Of a stretch of DNA of 64,000 bases, positions 8,480 through 53,568 are shown one piece after another (the first letter of the stretch is position 1; every line of letters begins with the position of its first letter). The DNA is taken from assembly GCA_030295235.1 (NCBI GenBank), contig AP026153.1, forward strand, positions 124,001 through 188,000, given 5' to 3'. Source of the stretch: Fistulifera solaris. Lineage: Eukaryota. Below the pieces are notes generated by a model. The model had not been told where the DNA came from. It did no database searches and was given only the letters and a program-made list of their open reading frames with translations. The position numbers and the translations under genes are program-made.

Positions 8480-9320
8480 AAATTGAAAACGATGGATTCG
8501 GTAAACGATTTGCGGCAAAACAGTGGATAGTTCAGTGCAATGTCAAAAAATATGGTGAACACCCATAAACAAATGTACGCCGGAACGAGAAATGCATGCT
8601 TTTGTGGATTGGATTCTGAGGATAACATCCCTTCGACAAAACATAATAAGTGGATAACCTCAAAGATTATCATTATACTTAACAACTTTACTGATATGAC
8701 GAAGGTCAAGCACGTTGCGCCAAGTGAAAACTAGCATTGGGAACTGGAAAAATAGGTGGAGATGGTTTAGACTTGGACTAAGCACGGTTCGTATCTAAAT
8801 TCAAGTTGGTTATCGATATATCGAGGACGTGAGGGTTTGTGACTACCGTTGCTGTTTCTTGAGTGTTGGCACAGGCATCGACTTCATCCATGTAGACGGG
8901 TTGGTAATCTTCTCCCGTTGCTTAGAAGCGTCGCGCGATACCGAGAAATCCTACTTTACAACATTCCTTTTAAAGCGGTTTCACTTACCAACATAAAAAC
9001 GATTGAATCGTTAAACGAAAAAGAATAAAAATGTACGCCGGAAGAAAAATAGCATGCTTTTGTGGACTGAGTTCTAAGGATCGCATCCTTTCAACGAAAA
9101 CATAATACGTGGATTCCTTCAAAGATAAATATATTGAATGTATAAAAACTAAAACCGACGTGTAGATCCTCTTGTATTTTGCCTATCTTCAAAGTACCAT
9201 GAGGAAATAGATATTGAGGTGGAGATGGGGAGGACCTTGACCTAGCAGGGTTCGTATCTAGGGCCAAGTTGGGTATCGATAACGCGAGAGCAGACGTTGT
9301 CACAACGACTGGAACCAATA
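8480..9320 (+). repeat. degenerate tandem duplication (~460-bp offset), likely a pseudogene relic
   Basis: ATGTACGCCGGA...GCATGCTTTTGTGGA...AAAACATAATA at 8573 and 9031. GGTTCGTATCTA...CAAGTTGG.TATCGATA at 8786 and 9249. Both copies contain stops or frameshifts. Confidence 0.7.
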
Positions 9321-24831: not shown

Positions 24832-25532
24832 TAAACGAGAGCGTGCCGATACCCGTTGACGTGACTATACTGCAACCCACATTTTCCACCAGGTTTTGCT
24901 TCTGTGAATAGGACTGCTCGTTGATTTCAGATTCAACGGGGTGAATCTTGAGAAAGCTATGATAAGAAAAGGGGTGCAGACTGCTGCAGTCCTCGACTGA
25001 AATTGCCTACCCTAAAGCTAATGAAGTTTGTTTGAGTAATTCTGTAAGTTGTAATTTATTGCTCATTCCTTTACAAGGAGACTGAGAACATGAATCTATG
25101 AAATTATCGATAATGCCCAGAAGGTCGACTTTAGCTAAGATTAGGTTTGTTTTACTGTACGACTTAAAATCTGCAGCGTCTGCTTGACTTCTCGATCGTG
25201 AAATTTGGCGCCGACTTTTTCGTCCGCGAAGCTTAGATCTATTCTAGAGAGGTGTGACCAGTAGCAATGTGTGTGTGTCAACTACAGTGGGAATTTTCCA
25301 AGTATGATAATTTCGGTGCCGCTTCAAAGTCTAGAGGTCTACATTGCACTACCGTACCAGCTTGCTCCACCAGGTTTCAAGTGTCAAGAGTCAAGAAGGA
25401 TTTTCGAGAAAAGAAAAATTTAAACCGAAATGACCTGCCCCTTTCGAAACACAAAAACAGCCTCGTGCATCAAAGAGCACAAGGATTTTATTTTACTTTC
25501 ATTGGTCTGTCTAAGCTGACTACAAGAGTAAA

Positions 25533-26173
25533 ATGCCGGACTATTTGAAGCTTCTTATCTATTCATTGGCATCCAGTGGTACGTGCAGCGTTGGGCTTTG
25601 GAGCTGGCACCGATGATATTACTGCTGTTATTCTTGCTTCGCAAGATAAATGTCGTGTGACATCCGACGCAATGTACAAGTCAGATGCATGCTACCTCTA
25701 ATGTCATCTAATAGCTTTGCGTTCTCTTTGTAGCTTTGTGGCTGGCTGAAGCCGCCGACGAGAACGATCGACATCTTTTTCAACGAAGTCTGCAGCTGAC
25801 AGGAGTATGCGACCCCATTCCTCCTGGTACCAACCCCAGAGTGTGTCGAACAGTTATTGGTACTGGAATCTGTCTAGATGCTAACGGAGAAAACTTTAAT
25901 GCGTGCTTCAAATATGGAGGACTACATGGTTTCACGAAAACGGATTGTCGAGATGTTGCTGAAGCGAGTGGCAAGGCTGTAGGCTGGCAGTACGGCGCTG
26001 TAGGATTGATACCCAGAGTGTGTGTGCTTTTCTTTGACGAAGCTGATGTCGATGGCCGCGTGACAAATCTTTGCCCGAGCGACTTTAGTCAATTTGGGCT
26101 TTCGGGTCGACTTGGGACGGGTTTTCCCAAACAGACGGCGGATGGTATCTTTGAGTGTTATAGCTGCGAATAA
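25533..26173 (+). CDS. secreted 9-Cys protein, family copy 1
   Basis: Exon 25533-25578, intron 25579-25733 (phase 1), exon 25734-26173. Sequence MPDYLKLLIYSLASSALWLAEA|ADENDRHLFQRSLQ...CYSCE. Confidence 0.85.
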
Positions 26174-26877
26174 ACATGTAAGCAATAATGATTTACATAC
26201 GAGTGCCAAGACAGCGGCATCGCTGAATGATTACTTCTGCTCTTGCACTGCGTGATTACGCAGGCACCGCTATCGAGGGCAAACTTGAGTAATAAAGATT
26301 GCCTATTGTTATTCCTTGCTATCTCTAGAATGGCGTTCACCTCGAGGAGAATCGGTTACGATGTTTGGTTTCGGGTAGTCGTTGGCTTGGGATAGACTTT
26401 AAGGCGTAATGTGTGAAAAAGTGAAGGCCGTCGGAGGAATGCACTAATCTATCGGCGTCGTACGTAAGGTTTAGTAATCTTAGTTGTTGGAGAGAGGAGC
26501 TTTCACCTCACATCATGACTACCGGTACCAGGTACTGTAAGGGGTAAGGTTACTACGTAATCTGCATCCGCCGATAACTTGCCTATGTATTTCGTCACAA
26601 CCGATAATAAAGAAAACAGAACAGTTTTCACGATTAAGGCGTACAATAAAACATTTACAGCTAGTTTCCGGCGGTAGTCCTATGTAAAAAATTGGAAGAA
26701 CATTACGATCAGAACGCAAAAAATCCATGACACCACGTTGCGACGATAAAGCAAACCGATCATCTATCGTGACAGAGACAGCAACACAAAAAATCTTTCT
26801 TTGATCAACAGATCGAACAACGATTCAACTCACATCGGTATCATAGCCGCTAACAGTGTATTCAAAAGACCGTCATA

Positions 26878-27499
26878 ATGGCCGGAAAGCTCACCAGCGC
26901 TCTACTTTTCTTTGGTCGTAAGTCTGTTGTCCCCATCGTCGAATTTTCGTATTGACCCCGCCAACCCTGCATCCTCCTGTCATCTGACCTCGTTTCCTCG
27001 AATTCAATGACAAGTAGTGGGGGGATGTTCTGCACATGATTGGAATTTACCTCTCTTTGAAAGAAATGTTCAAATCTTAGGATTATGCCCGGATATCGGC
27101 AATGACGATCCGCCTACGCCACCCTCCCCAGCTCCATCACAGGCTCCTACTTTTGTTCCGAGAAATTGTAACTCGAATGTGGGCTCTGGAATTTGCTTGG
27201 ATGCCAACGGCAATGCTTTCGACTCTTGCACCAAAATCGTTAATCCGCTGAATTACTCTCGAGGAAAATGCCAAAAGGCGGCGGAATCCGTGCCGAACTC
27301 TGTGGGTTGGCAATATGGTTTGTCTGGAAGTATTCCCTTGGCCTGTATTATCTATTTTGACGACGTTGACTCGCAAAATGATGTAAAACCACTCTGTCCT
27401 GAAGGTTTCGGAATCCTTACAACGTCCAGCAATACAGGAACCGGGTTCCCACAGTCGGGTGGCGAAGGATTTTTGGGATGCTATTCTTGTGAGGACTGA
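26878..27499 (+). CDS. secreted 9-Cys protein, family copy 2 (Pro/Thr linker)
   Basis: Exon 26878-26917, phase-1 intron from 26918 to 27014 or 27017 (NAGNAG acceptor). Sequence MAGKLTSALLFFGL(V)GGCSA|HDWNLPLFERNVQ...CYSCED. Confidence 0.85.
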
Positions 27500-28215
27500 T
27501 CTAGCTGCAAAATGTCGTTGCACTCTAGATAGATGCAGTATAGGCTGTTATTCTGATTTCAAAATTTAAAAGAGGATGCGCTTTCAAACGAGAAGTAATT
27601 GTCAAAAATACAAGCTAGAAGATGGGCCTCTCTAGGGCTAGATATCCTATTACCTAGAATATTAGCTTGATTCTACGTTTACCGAGATTATTTTGGCTGC
27701 TCTTATTCACGACCTTAGTTCACTCGTCACATCTCTCTAGCTCCGAGACGACACCGACACAGGACAGGAGACAGGACGAACCCGGACACCTATTGCCGGA
27801 CAAATAATGAGAGTTGCGACGTTGCGACAGTAGGTAGAAATGTACACGTTTGAAATTTATTTAGACCTAATAAATTGATGTCTATCAGGTATAGTGTACC
27901 CTACCTTACTTCGTTGAAAGCGAATAAAGTCGCAAGGGCCTGTTATTTTGGTGAGAAAATCATCTGAAAAGCCCCTGGAAGGTTCGGGAAAAAGTGTACA
28001 CTCACGTAGGCCCCCCGTAGAAAAATGTACCAAGCAGAGGTGCGTTCCCGTGTCTCCCTGGCCTTTGTGACCATTATTTTTACGTTTTGAATCTCGGAAG
28101 ACGAGAACGCGTGCTTCTCTTTTGCTGCCAGCTTTTGCTGCCTCTCATTCATCTTGCAAAAGAGCACTAAACCACAGCTTTTAATAACTTGCATAACACC
28201 AGATTCTTGACTACA

Positions 28216-28840
28216 ATGAAGTTCACCGGATCTGCCTTGACACTTGCCGTTACAACCAGTAAGTGCTTTCCGATCACGAAAGGTTGCTCTAGGGTTTCAA
28301 TGAGATGACCGACACATTCTCACCATTCGGCCTTTGTTTACAGGTTTGGTTGCTGCTCAGATGGGCCTTTTTGAGCGTTCTCTCGACTCGCACATCAGAA
28401 CCATTTGCGGTATCGACATTATCTCTCCCACGCCTCCTCCGACGACGTCTCCTTCGTCCGCCCCAAGTGCTGCTCCTAGTATCTCTACGGCTCCTACGAT
28501 TCTTGTGAAAGCCTGTGACGACAACATCGGGCAAGGTCAATGCTTAGACAGTACGGGTGAACCCTTCGATTATTGCACTTTGAATCTCGGAGAAGTGACA
28601 CCGGAGACATGTCAATCAATTGCGGAAGCGTCCGAGAAGTCCGTGGGATGGCAATTCGTAGGGTTCAAATTTGTTCCTGGAGTGTGCACAATTTACTTCT
28701 CTGAAGACGACTCGGGTGACGATGTGCGTGATTTGTGTCCGGAGAACTTTGCGGGCTTTTCCATCCGCAAAGGTACAGGATTTCCAGTTTCCACTGGCGA
28801 TGGGCTAGGCGCATGCTTTGCCTGCAATAAGAGGGACTAA
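28216..28840 (+). CDS. secreted 9-Cys protein, family copy 3 (PSxAPS linker)
   Basis: Exon 28216-28258, intron 28259-28343. Sequence MKFTGSALTLAVTTSLVAA|QMGLFERSLD...CFACNKRD. Confidence 0.85.
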
Positions 28841-29353
28841 GTGATGCCTTTCGAGTAAGATTCTTGATCCACAATGTTAGGTTCAAAAAATTGATTACTT
28901 TTTTATTGTTAAAAATTGTAAAAAAAACCAGGTCATATCAACTTGTTGTTATAAGTTGCTCACGTCGTGAAGAGCAATGAGGTGATATCAGAGATCTAGT
29001 TTAATCTCTAAGAGTCAATCATCGTGAACATAGATGCATCTCAGATCTCAGTCCCGATCCTTTTTTTGTCCATCGAAGCACACGTTTACACATTCAAATT
29101 TCCGTTGTGTTCGTGAGGTGCGCGGGATGTGTTTTTACTCCGTATGTCATGATAGTGACTATAGCGTATAATGTAGCTGTTTGAATAGGCAATATTTTGA
29201 TTCTTTGTTGTATCCAAGTTCCCCTTCTCCGCCTCCTGCCTTGCGCATGAAGTCCGAAGGCCGCGAAGCACCTTTTTCCTTAGAACGCTGTTTGTATTAT
29301 TTATAGACCGTCACAATCTATTGATAATATTGTGAAAACTTTGCTTCACGAAG

Positions 29354-29976
29354 ATGATCATCAACAAATCTTTGCTGGCTCTTGTTGCAACATCGAGTAA
29401 GTGAATCCCGATCGCACGACGATCTTGCACAATTGCACATGGATGAGGAGGAACTTGTGATATCGGTGTTCTCATTCCACGTAATTCAATGATTTTCTTT
29501 CAGGTTCGGTTGCTGCTCAGATGGGTCTTTTCGAGCGTTCCCTCGATTCGCACATCCGAACAATTTGTGGTATTGACTTTATCGGCCCCACCCCTCCTCC
29601 AAGTGTTTCTCCCACCGCTTCGCCGGCTCCCACGCCCGTTCCCAAGTCATGTGGCACCAATATTGGACGCGGTGATTGCGTAGACAAGGCAGGAAATGGC
29701 TACGATTACTGTGTATCGGCTCCTCTGGCATATTCACCCAGTGAATGCCGAGCCATGGCCGAATCTTTGGAGTTGTCCGTGGGCTGGCAAATGGGCCCCT
29801 TCAACTTACCGGCTTTTTCCTGCACGATTTATTTTGATAACGCGGACTCTGGTAGCTTTGTGAACCCTCTATGCCCTGACGGCTTCACGGGGCTCTCGAT
29901 CCGCGAAGGAACGGGTCTTCCTGTTGGCGTGAACGACCAGGTGATCCCCCTTGTCGCGTGCTTCGTTTGTGACTAA
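29354..29976 (+). CDS. secreted 9-Cys protein, family copy 4
   Basis: Exon 29354-29396, intron 29397-29503. Sequence MIINKSLLALVATSSSVAA|QMGLFERSLD...CFVCD. Confidence 0.85.
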
Positions 29977-31299
29977 ATATTGAAAGGCAGTTTAGGATTT
30001 GATGAAGGGTTTTCAAGCATCTTGGGATGGGATGTTTTTCTTTTGTGTCTTCGATTTAACGTTAATTTTAAAAGTAAAACACAAGTGTGTACGTAGTTCC
30101 AGATGATTCATGCCCGAAGATGGGACTGAGCAACTAACTCGAGCCGTTCAAGTAAATCTAAAGCATTCTACCCATGCAGATGGGGTGTTCGTAAATATAA
30201 GGAATTTGAAGCTCAGACTAACTTGATAACGCGTGCAGTCGGCCAATCATGGATCGTCGAAACCAAATTCTTGTACGATGCTTCCATAGTTCCAGCCCTT
30301 CAAATTTTCTATCAAGGAAGCAGTCAGCGATAATTTCTCTAGTAGAATGCATCGAAGCAGATCTCGAGCAAGGCGGCTTCGTGACGCCTGACACTTGAAA
30401 ACAGGGTCAAGGTTTGTCAAGCTGTTCAACAGCAGAGCTTTCTTTGGAAAGGCCACACATTCCCTAACGCCTGCTGCCCAAGCTAAAAAGTTAACGAGCA
30501 GATTGATATAATCAAACATGTCATGTGACTCTTGATGCAACTATTTCAGTCTCGGGACGAGGGACTCTCTAGCTAAGGCCACTTCTGGACGCCTCAACAC
30601 GATTCAGGACTCAGGAGTCAGTAGTCAGGACGACTCCTCGAGACACATGACACATGACACATGACTAAGGTCTTGGGGTTTGAAAAAGGCCCGGCCAAAA
30701 ATCTCCACCTACAAGTAATTGCGTTCAACGTTCAACGTTCAAATTACTCCGTGTTTGAATCGATGTCTTTAACATTTTTCGACACCTTGCTTTCAAGTAT
30801 TTAGGCGAATCTTCCATTTATTTAACCTTAAGCTGACGCGCGAAATTCTCAAAATCGCTCCTCTTATTACACTCTCAATCACACTAATCTCCGAAAAGTC
30901 TTCAACAGCGAAAACGCTATGATAGGGAGTTTGAATACTATGCAATCCACATGTTGCGCACGCGCGCTAGCAGCTAAGTAAAAACCATGATGTCGTAATT
31001 AATGACTGCGTCAAGCACGAACCACGTGGTCCTTATGCCATAATATTCGTGACCAAAAGCAGATTACTACTGGAGGACTTTGATCTGCCCCTCGGCAAGA
31101 CTGGAAATCCGAACTTGGCGGAGGTTTCGCGCATGCTAAAAACTCAAACGGAAAGCATTCACATGGCTTTGCAACGCCAACGGTTGAACAGGTTGCGAAC
31201 CGAGGACGAAAATTGTCAAACTCCTTTTGCGCTTCGTCTCTCTGAGGCATGCATAATTCAAATACTCACCATAAACAGAAGCAAAGACGATCTGTAAGG

Positions 31300-34200
31300 A
31301 TGCGGCAATCTTGTCTATCGTTGTCGTCCTTTGTCTTAGCCCTCGGCTGTTTGCTCTGTATTGTGGGCTCCAAGGTGCGAGCCGATACAGGAGAAGTCAC
31401 TGTAGCGCAACAACAACTAATATTTCTACAAAACGCTTGCCCACAAGAACTTCGCTGCCCTGGAGGGACCCGGCGGAGACCCAACTTTATCTTATGCCAT
31501 CCGACTCGCAATCAAGAAATTTGCTCGGCCTTTTCGCTGATCCGAAGAAGCATGGGATATCAATGCGGGAAATGTCCTCCGACGCCACAGTGTTCCCCTC
31601 AAACCGGAGTCGTCGCCGTGCCGACAATCCCCGAAATAGCCGGACGCCGACAAATCAGTTTAAACGCCGTTCCTCATTTGTGTATCTTGTGGAAAGTCAC
31701 CAACCGCAGTCGGCAACCTGTCGCCCGATCGTATCAAGGATTCGATTGGGAGTTGTATGGTCCGGACGCCAGCTCCAACTCCTTAACGTGTGCGGCCGGC
31801 AACTGTACCATCGCGATGCCACCTTCGGCCGACAATGTTCGTTACGAACTGCTTACCGTGGTGGCTCGACATGACGATACTCCAGCGCGTTTCTTAGAGC
31901 AAGCTACCTTTGGAGCTACACGGAGTGACTTATCTTCTTTCCCTGTCAACTATACACGATGGTTACGAAATCAAATCAACAACGTGCCTCCTTCGTATCA
32001 TCGCGAGTATTACCGGCGTCGCTTGAATCACCGTTTTGAACACGCGTCACCGCAGGGCATCGTCACGCATCCGTGTCAAGTCGGCACCCGGTATCGGCGG
32101 TACGCATTTAGTGACAAAGATCGAAACGATCAGTTGCAAATACGGACTGTCGGAAGTAACAAAGTATTTTTGGTGGATGGTCAGATTCGGACCGTACTCC
32201 CTGCAGAAACTACCGCAACGCTCTGGGATGGAGCCAATCGAGCGATTGCGGATGGCGTGTACACAATGTGCCGCAAGATTGACAACTACATCGGCACCGC
32301 GTGGAGAATAATACACCGAGGGTCATGTACCGAAGTCTTTCATACATCGCCCTCGCAGAACACCGCCGCGAATAAGAGAGTTTTGGGAGTACCTCCCGTC
32401 TTTTTTTACAAGCAATATTCCGCCTGATTTGCCGGTGGTGTCCTTGGATGGGAATGTTGTCGAATGGGATAACTTTTTGTACGCTTCGACTGATCGACCA
32501 CAGGAATTGATGGTAGTGAAACAAATGAATCAGCCCGTCTGTTCGAGCATCCCCGAGACAGTCACCCGTGATGTTGAAACAGTCGTCGGAATATACAAAG
32601 GTCGATATTATCTGCACGACAGTCGCTTTATTCTCGAAGAAAACACTTTACAAGTACCGTATGCGGACGGAGGTAGTGCGCTCGTTCAACAATCCTTGTC
32701 GCAAACAGATGATGAACGATTTCATGTGTCCTGCGGCAATGTGGCACCTACGATCGATAATGAACAATACTGCCGAATGGTACCGGTTGAGCAGTTGGCA
32801 AACAACGTTTGCACCTCCGGCGACACTATCTCGACTGAAAGCATCACTTTGACTCAGGAAACTTTGGAAGAAGTCTACATGGCCGGAGGGCGCTATTTGT
32901 ATGTTGTGACGGGATTGCGTCAAGATGAGTTTTTGTTGCATGATCCTCCGTGCTCTCCAGGCACAACATCGCGTTGGCTCAAACTACAAACATGCCCGAC
33001 TACGACGACCCCACTTCAAAGCGATACGATTACCGTGTTGCGACAGCTTTTGACTAGCAGCACTGACTTGCATCCCTTTTTGAGAGACGTTCTGTTCCCT
33101 ACTCTAGGCTCAGCATGCCATTCAAATGATCGAAATACGTACGACATGGTTGTACGATTGACAAATGGCGAGTGTTGGCAAAATATACATCCTGCTAATT
33201 ACCAAGTTTACGATTTCACCAATTGGGTAACAAATCATCCGGGAGGACCTGCTGCCATTGAGCATTTTTTTGACGGAAAGCTTCACCCTTTTCTATCCAG
33301 GCAACCACGAAATGATGCGATGGAATGAGAATTCACCAGTCCATCTAGTGGAAATAGGACGTTTTATGGACACTATAGATGTTCAAGAAGGCAGTCCCGT
33401 GGCTGACTCACTGTCCACGTTACTGCTTCAAGATGATCTGGAAGGCTCCACTCTGCTTTGCGGTAGTCCATCAGAAGTTGCCAACGATCTTACTTTGGGC
33501 GGGAGCATGTATCGAGGAGCTTTCGACGCGATGACAAATTACAATCGGACCACCCTCACAGAAGACTTAGAACGCCAGCGAACGAGTATCTGGTTGGAAA
33601 TGGCATTACGCGCACCTGATACGCTCCGACAGAAGGTCGCATGGATCTTGTCACAAATTCTTGTGGTAAGTCCAGACGCGATCGAAACGTACTGGAATAC
33701 TGAGCAGTTTCTGCACTATTACGACATATTTGTGAGGAACGCTTTCGGCAACTATCGAGATGTCCTGAAGCAAGTAGCATACAGCCCTCTCATGGCAGAA
33801 ATGCTCAGGTGAGTGAGAATTGTTGTGAAATGAGCTTCATTAGCCTCATCTGCTAACACCCCTGTTTCTGTCTCGCAATGCTAGTTACCAAAATGGTCAT
33901 TCTACGCAATATGTGTATCATACCAAACGACGCCTAGAGTACGCTGATGAGAACTTTGCTCGCGAGCTCGCCCAGTTGTTTAGCACCGGACTCGTGCCCT
34001 TGCGCCTAGATGGAAGTGTTGTACCGGCTGGTTCGACAACGTATACTAACGATGATATCGCGGAATATGCTCGACTGTGGACGGGCCTGGTCCGTCAACG
34101 TCGTCGAGGAAACATCGAAGATTCCGTGCAGGCGGGGCGCAATCAAATTGATCCCATGCGCATCAACGTTCAAGTAAAAGACGTCTTTCCTAAAATGGGC

Positions 34201-37200
34201 TTGCAGAGGCAGTATGTTGGTGATGGCATTGCTCGATGTGTCGATTTACCTTCTCAGCACCATCTCCAAAAAGGAGCTGTATACCGCTTACTTGGAACCA
34301 CGCCGAGTCCACGGCTGTTGCACCAACCTGCCTCGTGGTCGAGTGATCATTCAGTATCTAGAATACGACTGAGTCGTGCATCTCCTCTTTTACGGCTTTG
34401 TGTCAAGTCGGTGCCAACTCAACTTGCTCGTATCCTGCTGTTGTGGTCTTGCCGCGAACTTTGCCATGCAGCGACGAAAACTACTGCAATATTGTCCCCC
34501 GCATTTTGGAAGTCGATGCCGGCATTTACTATGAGTACACTCAACCTTCATGTGTGCAAATGGCATTTTACAACAACGGTGTCGTTCAATCATCCTTGAC
34601 ATCAACCCATTGCGCCGATCCGTTAATGGCGAACGGCGCAGTAGCATGCTGCCGTACTGGGAGCGATGCTGTCGATTGAGTCGCTCCAGATTCGCGGGCG
34701 AACTCCTCACACGTAATGCTGCGCGACAGCTTTGCCAAAATGCTGGACTCGATCTGTGTGACCGACCAAAATGCACTTCTGCTTTCAAAGAGAACAAAGC
34801 ATGCGATGACACTTTGGGATACTGGACGAATACTCCTTGCAGAGGATTAGCTGCGAAGGTTGATGTTGAGGGGCGTGTAGCCATTGTTCATAGTACTGTT
34901 GGCGACGCAGCTATCTATTATTCTGTCGAAGACGACACCAAGACATTTTTCCGTGTGGATTGGAATCGCCTTGATTTCGTTAGCGCATACGCAAGCACTT
35001 GTACCCAAGCCGGGTGTGTTCGGGAAGCCTCAGATAATATGTGCGTGTGCCCTGTGACTGTTGAAGAGCGTGTCGTCTTTCTAGATCCGGTGACGAATCC
35101 TCCCAACAAAAATGATATTCTCGATAAATTAAAGATCGGTGCCTTTGCTCCGATGTCAGCTAGCGTTACACTAGCAAATGGCGTCGTATGGTATCCCAAT
35201 GAACGTGTGTTCGAGCTCACCGACGACGTGGGGCGAAAGCAGTATCGAGCAAACCTGGAGTCTCGCGTTAAAGTGGGAAGCAGCACGTTGTGGTTTCGCA
35301 ATCCTCCCCATTTCATGTCGCTTACATTGCCTGAGAAACGTGATGCGGTCTATGAAATAGAGGCTGGATTGGATCATTTCTTTGTAAGTGCGATCGTTGC
35401 GTCCATATCAAATGCATAATCACCGCCCACTTACCTTCTCTGGAACACCACTTGCATCCATAGTATCACCCGAATACAGCACCATTTTTAGCGCTTCGTT
35501 TTTTACAGCGTTTCGGATTTTCCAACCCGTCACCCAGCTTCATCGAGTCAGTAGCAAAAGCATTTATTGCGGGTCGCTATACTACTACTGATGGTACTGT
35601 CTTTGGTAGCGGCTCATACGGTGACTTGAGTGCAATGGTAACATCTATCTTATTAGATCGGGAGAGCCGATCTCCCATCTTGGACTATGACCCTACATTC
35701 GGCTCAGTGCTTGAACCCTTTGGAAAGTATGTAAAAGTTTTGCGGGCACTAGAGTGGCAAGCCGATCGAGACGATCCACATATTCGTCTCCGGGCTGATC
35801 TCCAAGACTGGATCGGACAAGAAGCACATCGATTGCCCAGCGTGTTTTCCTTCTTCCTTCCAGAGTACTCGCCTCCCGGCCCCTTGGGGAGTGCTGGAAT
35901 GGTGTGCCCCGAATGCCAAGTAATGACAGGGCCGAAATCATTGGCTTTGATGAATGGATTGGCCAGTTTGATCAAATACGGACACGATAATGCTTACGGC
36001 GGATTCGGCTTTGGGCGAGGTGGTGATGAGCATCGGCGATCTCTAGGAAACTTTGCTCAATATTCAAATGGCCGATTAACATACGCTCCATCTACAGGAA
36101 TGACTTCTGCAAACATCGTTGAGGAATTGTCGACATTATTGACGGCGGGGCGGCTTTGGAAAGAAAAGGGTCAAGAATTAGTTCAAATATATGATGAACT
36201 CATGGCTAAAACTAGTTCTCGACAACAAAGTGTCATTTTGCTTCAGCAAATCATGACATCCACACCAGAATTTCATACCAATACAGTTGCGCGCCGCACA
36301 GCTACGAATAGCCGGCCTGGCGGCGCACGGGCGCCTTCTTCTTCCTCCGACTACAAAGCAGTGATTTACATACAGTTGAATGGAGGCTATGATTCATTTA
36401 ACTTGCTAGTGCCAAATCAATGTTCCGGCAAAAATGCTGCCGGGGTTCCGGTTCATACTCAGTATGATGAAGAACGTGGTATCCTGGCCTTAAATGCAGG
36501 AGAGCGTTCCCTAAAGATTCAAGTGAATGTGACGAAGAATACCAAATGGCCACAACCTTGCAGTGAGTTTGTAATCCACGATGAGATGCGACTTTTGAGA
36601 CAATTGTATCAGAGCGGTGAATTAATCTTTTGGCAAACACGGGGATGTTGGACGCGAAAAGCACTACGCCTTCCAATTATCGTTCTACACGCATGCAGCT
36701 ATTTGCTCATAACGCTATGATCCGCGAAAACCAAGCCGTTGATGCACGGGCACAAGCGCCTGGGTCTGGTGTGCTCGGACGACTGGCATCACGACTATCT
36801 TCCAAAGGTCTATCCACGAATTCTATCTCAATTGACAGTCCGTCGGTTGTAACGGAACCTCGACGTGGCCAAGTTCCTGCACCTTTGGTTATTAGTCGAA
36901 ATGGGGTGTCGGTCTTGGATCGAAAGCCCTCGGCTGAAGCGTCCATTAATGTGACGAAATACATGGAATCAGTCAATCGTTACAATCTTGACGAATACAA
37001 CTCGTACTTTGCCCAAACGTGGTCGCAACAGCTAATGGATGGTGCACGACAAGCAGAAGAATGGAAGGACTATTTGGACAGCGTTACCCTCGGTAGTCAT
37101 TGGCCCAGCTTGTTGCCAGAATACGGTTTGAAGTTCGCTGTCACGTCCAAAGTCATTGCGAGCCGAGCGGAACGCAAGGTGAACAGGGAGTTTTTCTTCG

Positions 37201-37688
37201 TTGATTGGTCCGGATGGGATCACCACGCTGACATGAAAGAGCGCATCCGTCCTATGTTTCAAGATCTCAACGAAGGACTGAGATGGCTTGTAGACGAATT
37301 AAAGTTACAAGGCGCATGGGAGGATGTTGCTATTGTAATCAGCTCCGATTTCGGTAGAACAATAACGGGCAACAGTGGACAAGGATCAGATCACGCATGG
37401 GGCGGTAATTACTGGATAATGGGAGGTGACATTGATGGTGGCAAGATTGTGGGCCGTTACCCGGATGATTTGACTCGTAATGGTCCGCTAAATATTGGTC
37501 GCGGTCGTCTTATTCCGACGACGAGTTGGGACGCGGTGTGGAATGGGGTAGCGGAATGGATGGGTGCAACGTCTCCGGAAGACTTAGACTTTTGCCTTCC
37601 CAACCGCAATTCCGTAGACGGAGGGACTGCAAGTGAATTTACCCCATTGTTAGGAGCAACTGACTTGTTCCATAAAGCAGCGGCTTGA
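31300..37688 (+). CDS. very large secreted DUF1800-DUF1501 fusion protein
   Basis: Signal peptide. DUF1800 motifs ARFLEQATFG, DTLRQKVAWILSQILVVS, YYDIFVRNAFGNYRDVLK, DENFARELAQLF, YHPNTAPF and LPSVFSFF. DUF1501 motifs LNGGYDSFNLLVP, LFAHN, GWDHH, SDFGRT and GSDHAWGG. Introns at 33809-33884 and 35384-35463. Frameshifts near 32405, 33268, 34390, 34675 and 36628. Confidence 0.88.
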
Positions 37689-50119: not shown

Positions 50120-51444
50120 TTATAATCCCACTGTGGGCATTTCGGTCAAAAACGCATCGCGAATGTCATTTTGTGCGGAACCACAAAGTTGTTGTAATGG
50201 TAAAAGTGCAAATGCATTTTCTATCTCCATGCCTACTTCGTCGATTCCGATCAAAACATACGCACCCAATGTGGTTGTCAGAGCCACTGTAATCGTCGGA
50301 AGGCCCGAGGCAATCAGTGACATTGGCGTCACCAAGAGCCACGTCGTAAGAACACGGCTTAAATGGCGACTATAGGTGGGAGGAATCGGACTTGTAAAGA
50401 TCCGTTGACATGCGCCGTAAACGGTTTCCAGCTCACGAATACGCTCTTCGATCATTAGAGCCACTCCGGCATCGACGAACGGAGACTGGTGCAACGCTAC
50501 ACTACATAACTGACGGAGGCGCGAAGTCAATGCCACCGGAAGTTTATTTTGTGCGACGGCCCATTTGTAGTCCTCCGACGATTCTCCCAGCATGATTTTT
50601 AGCACTTCCAGGCTTCGATCCGGATTTTCTCCACGAAGCGTCACTTTGATGACCCACGGAAAGGCCGCCATGTGACGGATTGCCAACGTACACGCGTAGG
50701 GATTCGAATCAAAGAGATATATTTTCAGTATATTGGCAAGTCCACGGGCATGCAGAACCTATCCCGAGATGAGTCGTCGACCAAGGCGCACTATAACAAA
50801 TAGAACTAGATTGCGAGATGACTTACCATGCGACCCATCTGAAGTCGCGACTCCAATAATCGAGTCATGCTGGCATTCGCTCGCAAGGTCAACAGAAGCG
50901 CCAATGGCGCCGAAAGAATCGACAAGACCGAAGTAGAGCCGATACCGGCTAAAACCGTCCCCGTCCACCCGAAGCGCCGACAGAGAACACACAACACGGT
51001 GGCGTAAGCCGTCGCGATCAGGACCGCCGGCAAGATGACGCGTGCGGTACTACTGGACCACCATCGGAGGACGTGTCGTGCATAACGAATGTGCGGCGGT
51101 CGAGAATGCGACTGCCACGTGCTGTGCGTCCAAAGTCTCGTGTAACTTGAACCGGCCGACACGAGGACCGGCGACATGGAATCGTCCGCCGAAGGCGTCG
51201 GCGGCCGCGCCTCGGCGAGACGAGCAAAATCGCGAGCCAGATTCTCTAGTAACTGTTGCTTGCTGGGTTTCACAAACGTCGACGTGTTTTCGGAGTCGAG
51301 TGATGTTGGTCCATCTACGGAAAATCGGCGATATCTCAAATTTCGTTCGGTAAGAATAGGATGCAAGCGAGTCGTCGGCGCGTAGCAACGCACACTGCTA
51401 AGCCACTGGATTGCGAGCCACAGAGTAAGATATCCAGAACCCAT
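50120..51444 (-). CDS. bestrophin-like anion channel (bacterial/VCCN/BST type), probably plastid
   Basis: LALLLTLRANASMTRLLESR, CQRIFTSPIPPTYSRHLSR and GIDEVGMEIENAF. Signal peptide. Intron at 50759-50826. Confidence 0.88.
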
Positions 51445-51912
51445 GGTCTTTGTTGTAACATAATGAACAATACGCAACATCTCTTTTTCCGGTTGCTGGT
51501 CAACTATTATATTAACACGGAAATATTCCGATGAATTTGGACGAAGTTGATGTTCGTGACTGGAATGAAATCAACACCCGATGAGCCGATGAGTGTTCGG
51601 GTTTTAGCTAAGTGACAAAACTAGCTATCTCACACAAGATCACACAAGTAAGCTTAGCAGCTAATTATCTTGGGCTATCGGTTAGAATGTAGATAAGTAA
51701 CGCAGGATTCTTCGAGTTTAGTTTACTCTTCATTCTATTTTAGTTTGAAAACCTAATTTAAATTTCAAATTTTTGAACCGCCGATTGCCAAGATCCAAAG
51801 ATCCCCCAGAACCAAAATATGTGAACCAGCTTTAATGACCTGCTATCCTTGACATCCTGCCAAATATTTGCGATCTGCGACAGTCTGTCAATATTTTGCT
51901 TTGAAGGCCGTT

Positions 51913-52483
51913 ATGAGTAAAGTTGTGAAGTTTCTCATCTGCCTTGTTGCATGCAGTTGTACGTGCTGTATCGTAAGCCGGCATGGTGGCTTCATGCCGC
52001 GCAGGCGACCATCTCGCTTAAGCTAGCCATCGAATCCTCACGCTTTTGTTTTTAAGGTCTGCAGTCGGTGGAGCCGGTAGAAGACGCCGACAGCAATTTG
52101 TTTCAACGCGGCCTATTGTGCGAATACGTTCCTCCCAACAGTTGCCGAACGAATATTGGTAGAGGAACTTGCCTCGACGCCGATGGCGAAAAGTTCGATG
52201 CTTGTTTCAAGGCCGGCGCCGGGCACGTCTTCTTTAAGTCAGATTGTCGGGATGCCGCCGAGTCAACCAGCAATTCAGTGGGATGGCAGTACGGGGCGTT
52301 GAGAGCGATTCCTAGGGTCTGTGTGATCTTCTTTGACCACGCGGTTGTTGGTGACGATGTGGATATTTACTGCCCGGGGGGCTTCAGCCGATTTGAAATC
52401 TCGGGTCGTATTGGAACTGGTTTCCCGAATCGAACCGGCGACGGGCTTTTGATTGCTACAGTTGCATAGGTGGAATTGATTGA
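51913..52483 (+). CDS. secreted 9-Cys protein, family copy 5 (dispersed)
   Basis: Exon 51913-51958, phase-1 intron 51959-52056. Sequence MSKVVKFLICLVACSCLQS...NLFQRGLLC. The C-terminal FDCYSCIGGID* is restored by +1 T near 52450. Confidence 0.8.
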
Positions 52484-52613: not shown

Positions 52614-53568
52614 CTAGAACCAAATAGTTACAGCGCTGACCCAACTGACAACCAATGCACAAATCGTAAAAGTTCCAATCGCCGTTGCACTGGAACTTTC
52701 TCCATCTTCACCATTCGTAGGATCTCCCGTTTCTTCGGATGACGCTTCGAGTGTTCCATCCTCTGTGGGTGCTTGCGTTGCCAAAATAACATCTTCACAC
52801 CCCGGAATGGTAGCATCACCGATACCGAATCCATAAGCACTGCAAGCCAAATCAGGGTTGGCGGCTCCCAATTCTTGTATCATAGCTTCCAATTCGGCAC
52901 ATTCGGTAGTGGTTACGTCGTTCTGCAGCTCCTCACAAAGGCGAATGCGTACCGTACTTTGTTCCAACTGTAGATTGACACGATTTTTATTTTCCAAAGT
53001 TTCGCAAACCTGTTCCATTTCCGCGTGTCCGGGTGCCCCGACTTCAAAATAAGCTTTCAATGCATTCCAGCAATCGGTTGGGTCGTCCGAACAATCGTAT
53101 GCTGTTCCAGAAACCGTTATGGAATCTTTCAATTTAGGAATGTTGTTGTTCGATGGATCTTGCTCAAAGAAGAATCCTTCACTAGCGCCCAACCCAAGAG
53201 CGCTGGGATTATAGAACGGGCGGTTAGGATCGTTTGGTTGTGAGTAACAGAAGCAGATGAACGGTCATTTCAAACATCTTGGCAATTACTTACGCATCGG
53301 AAGATTGCATGTCACCCACGCGAAATGCATTGACAAAGGCACTGGCATAAGTACAAATAGAGGCCACATTTTGCTGTGCAACTTTGATTTGATACACATC
53401 CAAGCACTCTTGACTGGCACGTGGCCAGGCGACCAATTCACCGCCCAGTTGACCGTAATCCTTGCAATCGGTGGCATCATCGGCTGTGTAGAGGCACGCA
53501 TCGCACTGAGCGTAGGCTCGTGTTGCGAGGAGACTGATTGCGAGTGGGAGGACGATAACCGACTTCAT
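52614..53568 (-). CDS. Cys-rich secreted protein with a predicted GPI-anchor signal
   Basis: Signal peptide ending RAYA|Q. The intron at 53203-53293 joins the two ORFs in frame. Acidic S/T linker, then ESSSA followed by a hydrophobic C-terminus. Confidence 0.8.

Follow-up and report, generated by a model that had tools for sequence, protein, structure and literature searches.

PAN/apple domains are the closest described counterparts of the proteins reported here, and passages of one study describe four strictly conserved core cysteines in them (C70, C74, C84 and C96 in HGF; PMC9249922). Among stramenopiles, the excerpted text of PMC3532174 describes the CBEL-type proteins of oomycetes, in which a CBM1 is combined with PAN/apple; these proteins are wall-associated, their PAN part is credited with the binding of glycans or proteins, and diatoms are reported there to lack CBM1 genes as well as the CBM1-PAN combination. 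The silaffins, silacidins, cingulins, frustulins and SAPs of diatoms represent another relevant group. According to parts of PMC5647440 and PMC9650480, R-x-L (RXL) sites after the signal peptide are propeptide cleavage sites of such biosilica-associated proteins, and the excerpted text of PMC5647440 states that RXL sites have so far been found only in these. Here we analysed a window of 64,000 nucleotides from the pennate diatom Fistulifera solaris (assembly GCA_030295235.1, contig AP026153.1, positions 124,001 to 188,000 of the forward strand; coordinates below are those of the window, meaning this whole stretch) and describe an array of old, expressed tandem paralogs on chromosome 18 of the H subgenome. 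With a probability of roughly 0.6 we read this array as encoding secreted extracellular binding proteins derived from the PAN/apple domain.

Four paralogs in plus orientation occupy positions 25533-29976 and a fifth copy is located at 51913-52469 (table 1), which confirms what a first-pass annotation had claimed from the letters of the window and their open reading frames (ORFs). The same annotation had proposed a first exon of 40-46 nt and a phase-1 intron inside the signal peptide, and this holds for all five gene models built from the window: GT..AG ends and phase 1 were found in 5/5 introns, and the spliced coding sequence is divisible by three in 5/5 models. For gene 2, an alternative GT donor may exist at 26915, three bases 5' of the chosen one. 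The stop-to-stop ORFs of the plus strand that hold the second exons encode clearly related proteins. The spliced protein of gene 4 is letter for letter GAX17850.1, a hypothetical protein of F. solaris with the locus tag FisN_18Hh053 (P0012 among our matches), and exon 2 of gene 3 is 100% identical to P0014, the "hypothetical protein" FisN_18Hh052. FisN_18Lh052 and FisN_18Lh053 fall in the same 90%-identity clusters as FisN_18Hh052 and FisN_18Hh053; excerpts of the literature term F. solaris allodiploid or allopolyploid.

Parts of the region 25400-30100 were found in five public runs, none of which is recorded as RNA, and four of them (X1-X4, all from one study) were mapped. Contigs of X1 are DNA-like and cover 30/30 bins. 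Contigs of X2, X3 and X4 cover 14, 11 and 12 of the 30 bins, located at exon-2 and 3' parts of the genes, and leave the intergenic regions uncovered except for depth that tapers into adjoining bins. In X2, position 28258 is joined directly to 28344 in a contig of 209 nt, which has flanks of 57 and 152 nt and leaves out 85 nt with GT..AG ends. The skipped stretch is exactly the predicted intron of gene 3 and therefore supports the gene 3 model; splicing at the predicted junctions, which the first-pass annotation had put forward as a check, is thereby seen for this gene in an RNA-like contig. From the exon-only cover and the one spliced contig we infer that X2-X4 are RNA in nature. Gene 1 is covered in X3 and X4 (exon 2 only), gene 2 in X2, X3 and X4 at 27106-27626, gene 3 in X2, and gene 4 in X2-X4 at 29547-30100, where the missing cover of gene 3 in X3/X4 and of gene 1 in X2 is no sign of silence. 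Three relatives predicted from short genomic contigs (P0006, P0007 and P0011) have N-termini that extend upstream of the shared exon-2 start, as would be expected if an intron were present at the same place. We regard the existence of the gene family together with its expression as almost certain.

The exon-2 proteins of the five copies share 30 invariant alignment columns, among them eight cysteines of the domain and one upstream cysteine, and are 36-54% identical to gene 1. Their paralogy is far beyond chance, since matches of the family profile to relatives, among 1.84 billion representatives, reach E 2e-77. In 5/5 copies the N-terminus after splicing is short and hydrophobic, and was judged by eye to be a signal peptide. 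It is followed by an LF[QE]R[SNG][LV] motif, one cysteine, a Pro/Thr/Ser-rich stretch of about 5-34 residues, and lastly the domain, about 110 residues long, whose eight cysteines keep a fixed spacing. The motif as first formulated, LF[QE]R[SN][LV], was correct for genes 1-4 and had to be widened for copy 5, which reads LFQRGL. Likewise, the description as a nine-cysteine protein stands for the eight domain cysteines and the one upstream, whereas the extra cysteines (a tenth in gene 2, three in copy 5) are located in the signal peptide. The domain begins with a conserved hairpin, C-x3-[IV]-G-x-G-x-C, and ends in a C-terminal extension with further cysteines, C-P-x-x-F ... G-T-G-F-P ... C-x-x-C; no anchor follows the closing C-x-x-C. 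As for the individual copies, the product of gene 1 has 161 aa, 9 Cys and a short linker, gene 2 has the motif variant LFERNV and a Pro/Ser/Thr linker of about 26 aa, and gene 3 encodes LFERSL at 28367-28384 and the eight-cysteine domain at about 28508-28837.

The first-pass annotation had been unable to match the proteins to a named family and had pointed to a PAN/apple-like core in which both cysteines of one disulfide were replaced by Ala/Ser. Both statements were supported by our analysis. Pfam gave no real match for any of the five window proteins and none for core family members among 50 profile matches (including no match to WSC), and neither the window proteins nor 34 family members reached the gathering score of the Pfam models PAN_1, PAN_2 and PAN_4. 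At E<=10 the 34 members gave six unrelated matches of one member each, with E 0.036-0.39. A match of gene 3 to DUF2025 (E 0.036), with 14.4 bits well short of the required 25, was regarded as a chance result.

AlphaFold2 predicted gene 3 (11 alignment rows) with residues 1-49 disordered and the domain at a predicted local distance difference test (pLDDT) score of about 90, and the gene-1 domain alone (25835-26170, 38 rows) with a pLDDT of 93.3 and a predicted template modelling score of 0.87. In the models, the domain would have a helix lying against an antiparallel sheet together with a hairpin, which is the PAN/apple arrangement. With Foldseek against PDB, neither model had a match at E<=0.001; the weak rows contained an S-locus receptor kinase (SRK) for both models and HGF NK1 for the second. 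A comparison by AlphaFold and Foldseek had been suggested earlier, and the best structural neighbours of the two independent models were indeed PAN/apple chains, at ranks 1-11 of 48,161 in the structure comparison. The domains WSC and MANEC, which belong to the same structural superfamily as PAN, ranked below the apple modules, and their cysteine patterns differ from that of the family. For the apple rows, the entry titles themselves name the match as PAN/apple; the aligned parts of SRK, plasminogen, HGF N, a leech protein, SML-2 and AMA1 we take to be PAN/apple as well.

At the level of sequence, the family is connected to PAN by P0065, a remote protein in the tail of the profile search (E 1.1e-4) and the sole one passing PAN_1 (27.1 bits at a cut-off of 21.4). 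The hairpin C-x3-[LIV]-G-x-G-x-C is common to P0065 and the family. The hhalign comparison between the family and this canonical PAN sequence gave E 2.2e-4 and a probability of 45% over 72 columns, and placed the helix C-x3-C and the strand C-T-G-Y of P0065 opposite C-x3-A and [S/A]-V-G-W of the family. By this alignment the family retains equivalents of HGF C70 and C96, namely C89 and C114 in the exon-2 numbering of gene 3. At the first lost position, core family members have Ala with few exceptions, and at the second Ala, Ser or Val (155 domain matches in 87 proteins, a tally that includes cluster mates and is not one of independent cases). In remote repeat proteins from the profile tail, the first lost position, and sometimes both, is occupied by Cys. 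In the ESM Atlas, 4 of the 30 clusters listed carry a family set of PAN_1 (best 0.90), which we take as a lead only; all neighbours with any family were PAN. Taken from alignments and models, the domain appears to be a remote relative of PAN/apple that has lost one core pair and gained the hairpin and C-terminal cysteines, and we consider PAN/apple ancestry quite probable.

We compared the family to a PAN/apple set (Pfam PAN_1 PF00024, PAN_4 PF14295) consisting of HGF N, the plasminogen N-terminal domain, the apple domains of factor XI/prekallikrein and of Toxoplasma MIC4, and Sarcocystis SML-2. Both share the order of secondary structure elements (hairpin, helix, two long central strands, closing strand), as well as the helix cysteine and the central-strand cysteine that correspond to HGF C70 and C96. 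The aromatic strand motif G-W-x-[YF] of the family is followed by C-x-[IL]-x-F at PAN-like spacing, and both groups are secreted, as far as predicted for the family, and modular, with tandem repeats in relatives of the family. CBEL proteins, which like the family are from stramenopiles and are the most thoroughly studied PAN proteins of that group, are secreted, contain non-catalytic PAN/apple modules and have the canonical PAN cysteines, whereas the family comes without CBM1. Relative to PAN/apple, the family differs by six further conserved cysteines, by a length of about 110 instead of 70-90 residues, by its invisibility to the Pfam PAN models, and by the replacement of the second core pair (C74 and C84 in the excerpts of PMC9249922) with Ala and Ser/Ala/Val. 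With the diatom RXL proteins it may have in common a signal peptide and an R-x-L within about 10-20 residues, as given in parts of PMC5647440, but the rest of the sequence is unrelated.

Of the 1.84 billion cluster representatives searched with a profile built from 11 sequences, 51 proteins reached E<=0.001, of which 17 also reached E<=1e-10 and 5 E<=1e-30. As judged from these searches the family is small and has no name. For 23 clusters the source was looked up: nine had an organism name, which was F. solaris in all nine, and the others were nameless Logan, ENA or JGI records. At least 13 named proteins of F. solaris belong to the family (18Hh052, 18Hh053, 18Lh052, 18Lh053, 27Hh092, 27Lh092, 23Lu072, 23Hh057, 3Lh054, 12Lh039, 14Hu015, 8Lu039 and 29Hu010). 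Word-indexed homolog searches with alignments gave 12 and 6 proteins and no named organism beyond F. solaris. Some relatives contain 2 to 4 tandem domains with Pro/Thr spacers between them. One further profile match, the CBM_14-rich P0041 (E 1.2e-9), extends over profile positions 80-134 only and was dismissed as an artefact of cysteine repeats. In a tree of 27 rows, gene 1 groups with P0024 (97/90 support, 79% identical), gene 2 with P0022 (99/98), gene 3 with P0006-P0010 and gene 4 with P0011. Since each of genes 1-4 pairs with its own relative from other assemblies, the duplications predate the splits from these relatives, and all four copies have been retained since then. In the literature searched we found no paper with locus tags or accessions of the family, publications on diatoms and PAN/apple contained nothing on the FisN_18Hh052/053 family, and the one supplement of PMC5935921 that was examined as text held no family IDs.

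The loops differ strongly between the copies, as the first-pass annotation had stated. Column entropy peaks at 1.89 bits in the loop after the third cysteine (close set) and at 1.42 bits in the hairpin after G-W-Q; S-V-G-W-Q and G-T-G-F-P have the lowest values, 0.32 and 0.18 bits, so that the loops are clearly more variable than the framework. The 10-residue part after VGWQ, which had been described as a loop that differs in every copy, is indeed variable, but in the AlphaFold model it would form the tip of a beta-hairpin and no plain loop. Between paralogs the post-third-cysteine loop and the G-W-Q hairpin are 16% and 31% identical; within ortholog groups the same two parts reach 61% and 65%, and the other parts outside the motif 67-70%. 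A set of near-identical contigs, which probably represents the other subgenome, differs from the window in 36 codons, of which 29 are synonymous and 7 non-synonymous. In these contigs gene 4 has four amino-acid changes, all at residues 61-66, which form the loop from the second to the third cysteine. A search for DNA of relatives, made with alignment A2 and P0003, yielded no metagenome locus. Ongoing diversifying selection, one possible sense of the 'diversified' scaffold proposed earlier, was not borne out, with loops kept in orthologs and codon changes mostly synonymous; for the same reason old specialisation is preferred here over ongoing diversification. The sequence comparisons suggest that the loops diverged between the copies long ago and have since been under purifying selection, with no running arms race.

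The N-terminal motif was followed in an alignment of 34 rows, 31 of which contain the motif region. Its Arg is present in 29/31 rows, a Phe two residues upstream in 26/34, R-x-L in 17 and R-x-[LIVM] in 22 of the 31 rows, and the next cysteine comes 3-10 residues past the motif. Four of the five window copies have a strict R-x-L and gene 2 has R-N-V, counts that refer to a short motif behind signal peptides judged by eye. Within ortholog groups the motif region reaches 89% identity, compared with 61% between paralogs. It also lies in the best-conserved DNA of the gene 3/gene 4 pair: a within-window repeat comparison found the 108-nt stretch 28333-28440 (+) to be 84% identical to 29493-29600, and this stretch spans the end of the intron and the coding DNA for the pro-segment, the RXL-like motif and the ninth cysteine.

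Based on this layout we propose the following working of the proteins. They would enter the endoplasmic reticulum via the signal peptide, be trimmed by signal peptidase and then probably be trimmed a second time after the R-x-L site. The segment to be removed is short and mostly acidic and ends in a hydrophobic-F-x-R-x-L motif that resembles the RXL propeptide site of diatom cell-wall proteins. The Pro/Thr/Ser spacer of 5-34 residues, disordered in the model, would probably be O-glycosylated before the protein is secreted. The eight domain cysteines, whose number is even and invariant, may pair to four internal bridges, and the ninth, in the disordered segment, would remain free and could serve to attach the protein covalently to a partner or to itself. 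The predicted fold suggests a binding function, as a lectin, an adhesive or in recognition, in which the head would be a PAN/apple-type module for a glycan or protein and the paralog-specific loops would set the ligand. The putative location is the cell surface, an organic wall layer or the mucilage. By analogy, the RXL-like motif is the sole and weak pointer to a wall-directed route, and we give a binding role in wall or mucilage about even odds. A more far-reaching version, which we hold to be rather unlikely, sees the family as a rewired PAN/apple lectin toolkit invented in the diatom lineage. RXL processing would expose a free N-terminal cysteine through which each protein is cross-linked with the organic wall or with raphe mucilage; a glycosylated stalk would carry a paralog-specific head, and the heads would between them recognise different glycans of wall or mucilage, or bacterial surfaces.

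Several observations weigh against the reading as secreted PAN/apple-derived binding proteins. Even at E<=10, the Pfam models of PAN, WSC and MANEC failed to match a single one of the 34 family members, PDB sequences searched by profile yielded two chance-level rows only (purine nucleoside phosphorylase, E 0.13; Cog4, E 1.1), and the hhalign probability to P0065 is no higher than the 45% given above. Of the four core cysteines that define PAN, the equivalents of HGF C74 and C84 are lost. The R-x-L motif is short, has Val in gene 2 and has Leu in only 17/31 rows. Furthermore, no proteomic or localisation record for the family was found in our searches, and the neighbouring genes give no functional hint.

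In a rival reading the domain is an independent, disulfide-rich alpha/beta fold specific to diatoms that resembles PAN/apple by convergence, and function would in that case not be transferable from PAN modules. We consider this unlikely, since PAN/apple chains hold the first eleven ranks for both independent models, all ESM Atlas neighbours with a family are PAN, and P0065, a bona fide PAN_1 protein, shares the hairpin and aligns column by column over the helix and the central strands. A PAN/apple origin leaves room for functions other than that of a wall or mucilage part. The PAN modules of HGF and of the plant S-locus receptor act in signalling, and the proteins of the array might accordingly be diffusible signals or recognition ligands in mating, in cell-cell contact or towards bacteria. 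Such a role would suit small proteins without an anchor after the closing C-x-x-C, with paralog-specific loops and with HGF N and the PAN region of SRK among the top structural neighbours. It appears improbable to us in view of the transcript-like contigs of genes 1, 2 and 4, which occur in two or three of the three runs of one culture study; expression is therefore not limited to a rare stage, as far as contigs tell. The relatives with 2-4 domains and Pro/Thr spacers moreover resemble matrix proteins, and in PMC5647440 the RXL motif, to which that of the family is similar, is reported so far for wall proteins.

The RXL-like motif also opens the question of whether the proteins take part in forming biosilica inside the silica deposition vesicle, similar to silaffins or cingulins. 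A signal peptide followed by R-x-L is what most biosilica-associated proteins have according to excerpts of PMC5647440, and the strict form is present in 4/5 window copies. Nevertheless we rate this as quite unlikely, because Lys/Ser-rich or acidic low-complexity regions that precipitate silica are missing and the bulk of the protein is a folded disulfide domain; a term search in the main text of the silica-proteome preprint 10.1101/2021.09.18.460806 gave no whole-word PAN, apple or RXL. Finally, the conserved Phe shortly past the predicted signal peptide could be read as part of a bipartite plastid-targeting presequence and the proteins as plastid or periplastid. Diatom plastid presequences carry a Phe at the cleavage site; that of the family is found 4-14 residues past the likely cleavage site in an acidic segment, with a mucin-like Pro/Thr spacer behind it and then an eight-cysteine domain of the sort found in oxidising, extracellular compartments, so that a plastid location seems very improbable.

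Table 1. Gene models of the five array members (window coordinates; ORF, plus-strand open reading frame from stop to stop).
Gene	Position	Strand	Exon 1	Intron	Exon 2	ORF	Annotated as
gene 1	25533..26173	+	25533-25578 (46 nt)	25579-25733 (155 nt, GT..AG, phase 1)	25734-26173	25715-26173	
gene 2	26878..27499	+	26878-26917 (40 nt)	26918-27017 (100 nt)	27018-27499	27011-27499	
gene 3	28216..28840	+	28216-28258 (43 nt)	28259-28343 (85 nt)	28344-28840	28304-28840	FisN_18Hh052
gene 4	29354..29976	+	29354-29396 (43 nt)	29397-29503 (107 nt)	29504-29976	29485-29976	FisN_18Hh053, GAX17850.1
gene 5	51913..52483	+	51913-51958 (46 nt)	51959-52056 (98 nt)	52057-52469 as read	52056-52469	

The closing cysteine motif, which had been expected in all copies, is in frame in genes 1-4. 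Copy 5 as read stops short of it, and the Cys-x-x-Cys can be read in the next frame only (52451-52483). A run of four T at 52447-52450 directly precedes the frame switch at 52451. Contigs of X1 lack one base relative to the window at each of the positions 28011, 28899 and 28920, the latter two of which were seen by inspection to lie in T and A homopolymer runs, and this suggests homopolymer-length errors either in the assembly or in the contigs. Because of this disagreement at homopolymers, an assembly error in copy 5 is as likely as a true frameshift, which would make the copy a pseudogene. Adjoining copy 5 there is an ORF of 216 aa on the minus strand (52614-53264) that is acidic, has several cysteines and a hydrophobic end and gave no Pfam match; it may encode another secreted or anchored protein.

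Neighbouring ORFs in the window encode TMEM43, a histidine phosphatase, DUF1800/DUF1501, a short-chain dehydrogenase, a lactonase, a bestrophin and a leucine-rich repeat protein. Between genes 2 and 3 the summed contig depth of X1 rises to 4343 in bin 27912-28068, versus about 13-15 beside it, with many loose ends at 27974/27975 and 28057-28061. An element of about 83 bp at 27975-28058 is thus highly repeated in X1, as a dispersed repeat or an abundant small RNA. It has no Rfam match and no second copy within the window, and Rfam gave 0 matches at E<=0.1 for the whole region 25000-30500. DUF1800 is split over the plus-strand ORFs 33231-33812, 33844-34599 and 35464-36720, followed by DUF1501 at 36621-37688. 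DUF1800-DUF1501 pairs are typical of bacteria; the one at 33231-37688 is found in a diatom chromosome and is interrupted by introns or frameshifts. The bestrophin-like gene on the minus strand (50123-51570) is divided into the ORFs 50120-50758 and 50806-51570, presumably by an intron. The two copies of a 71-nt direct repeat (8571-8641 and 9029-9099) are 80% identical and offset by 458 nt.

Only a small number of folded binding modules has been linked to the surfaces, the mucilage or the organic wall layers of diatoms, and most proteins found there are uncharacterised. The family described here provides a defined, expressed and confidently modelled module, putatively secreted, that occurs in single- and multi-domain forms. 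It also appears to show how a PAN/apple scaffold can lose one of its core disulfides and be stapled again by others. According to PMC13276009, F. solaris can be transformed and edited, and localisation and knock-out tests are therefore feasible. The family is one lineage-restricted family among many such secreted families of diatoms and does not constitute a new kind of system. If the reading as a rewired lectin toolkit were true, it would offer a handle on how naviculoid diatoms build their adhesive or protective coats.

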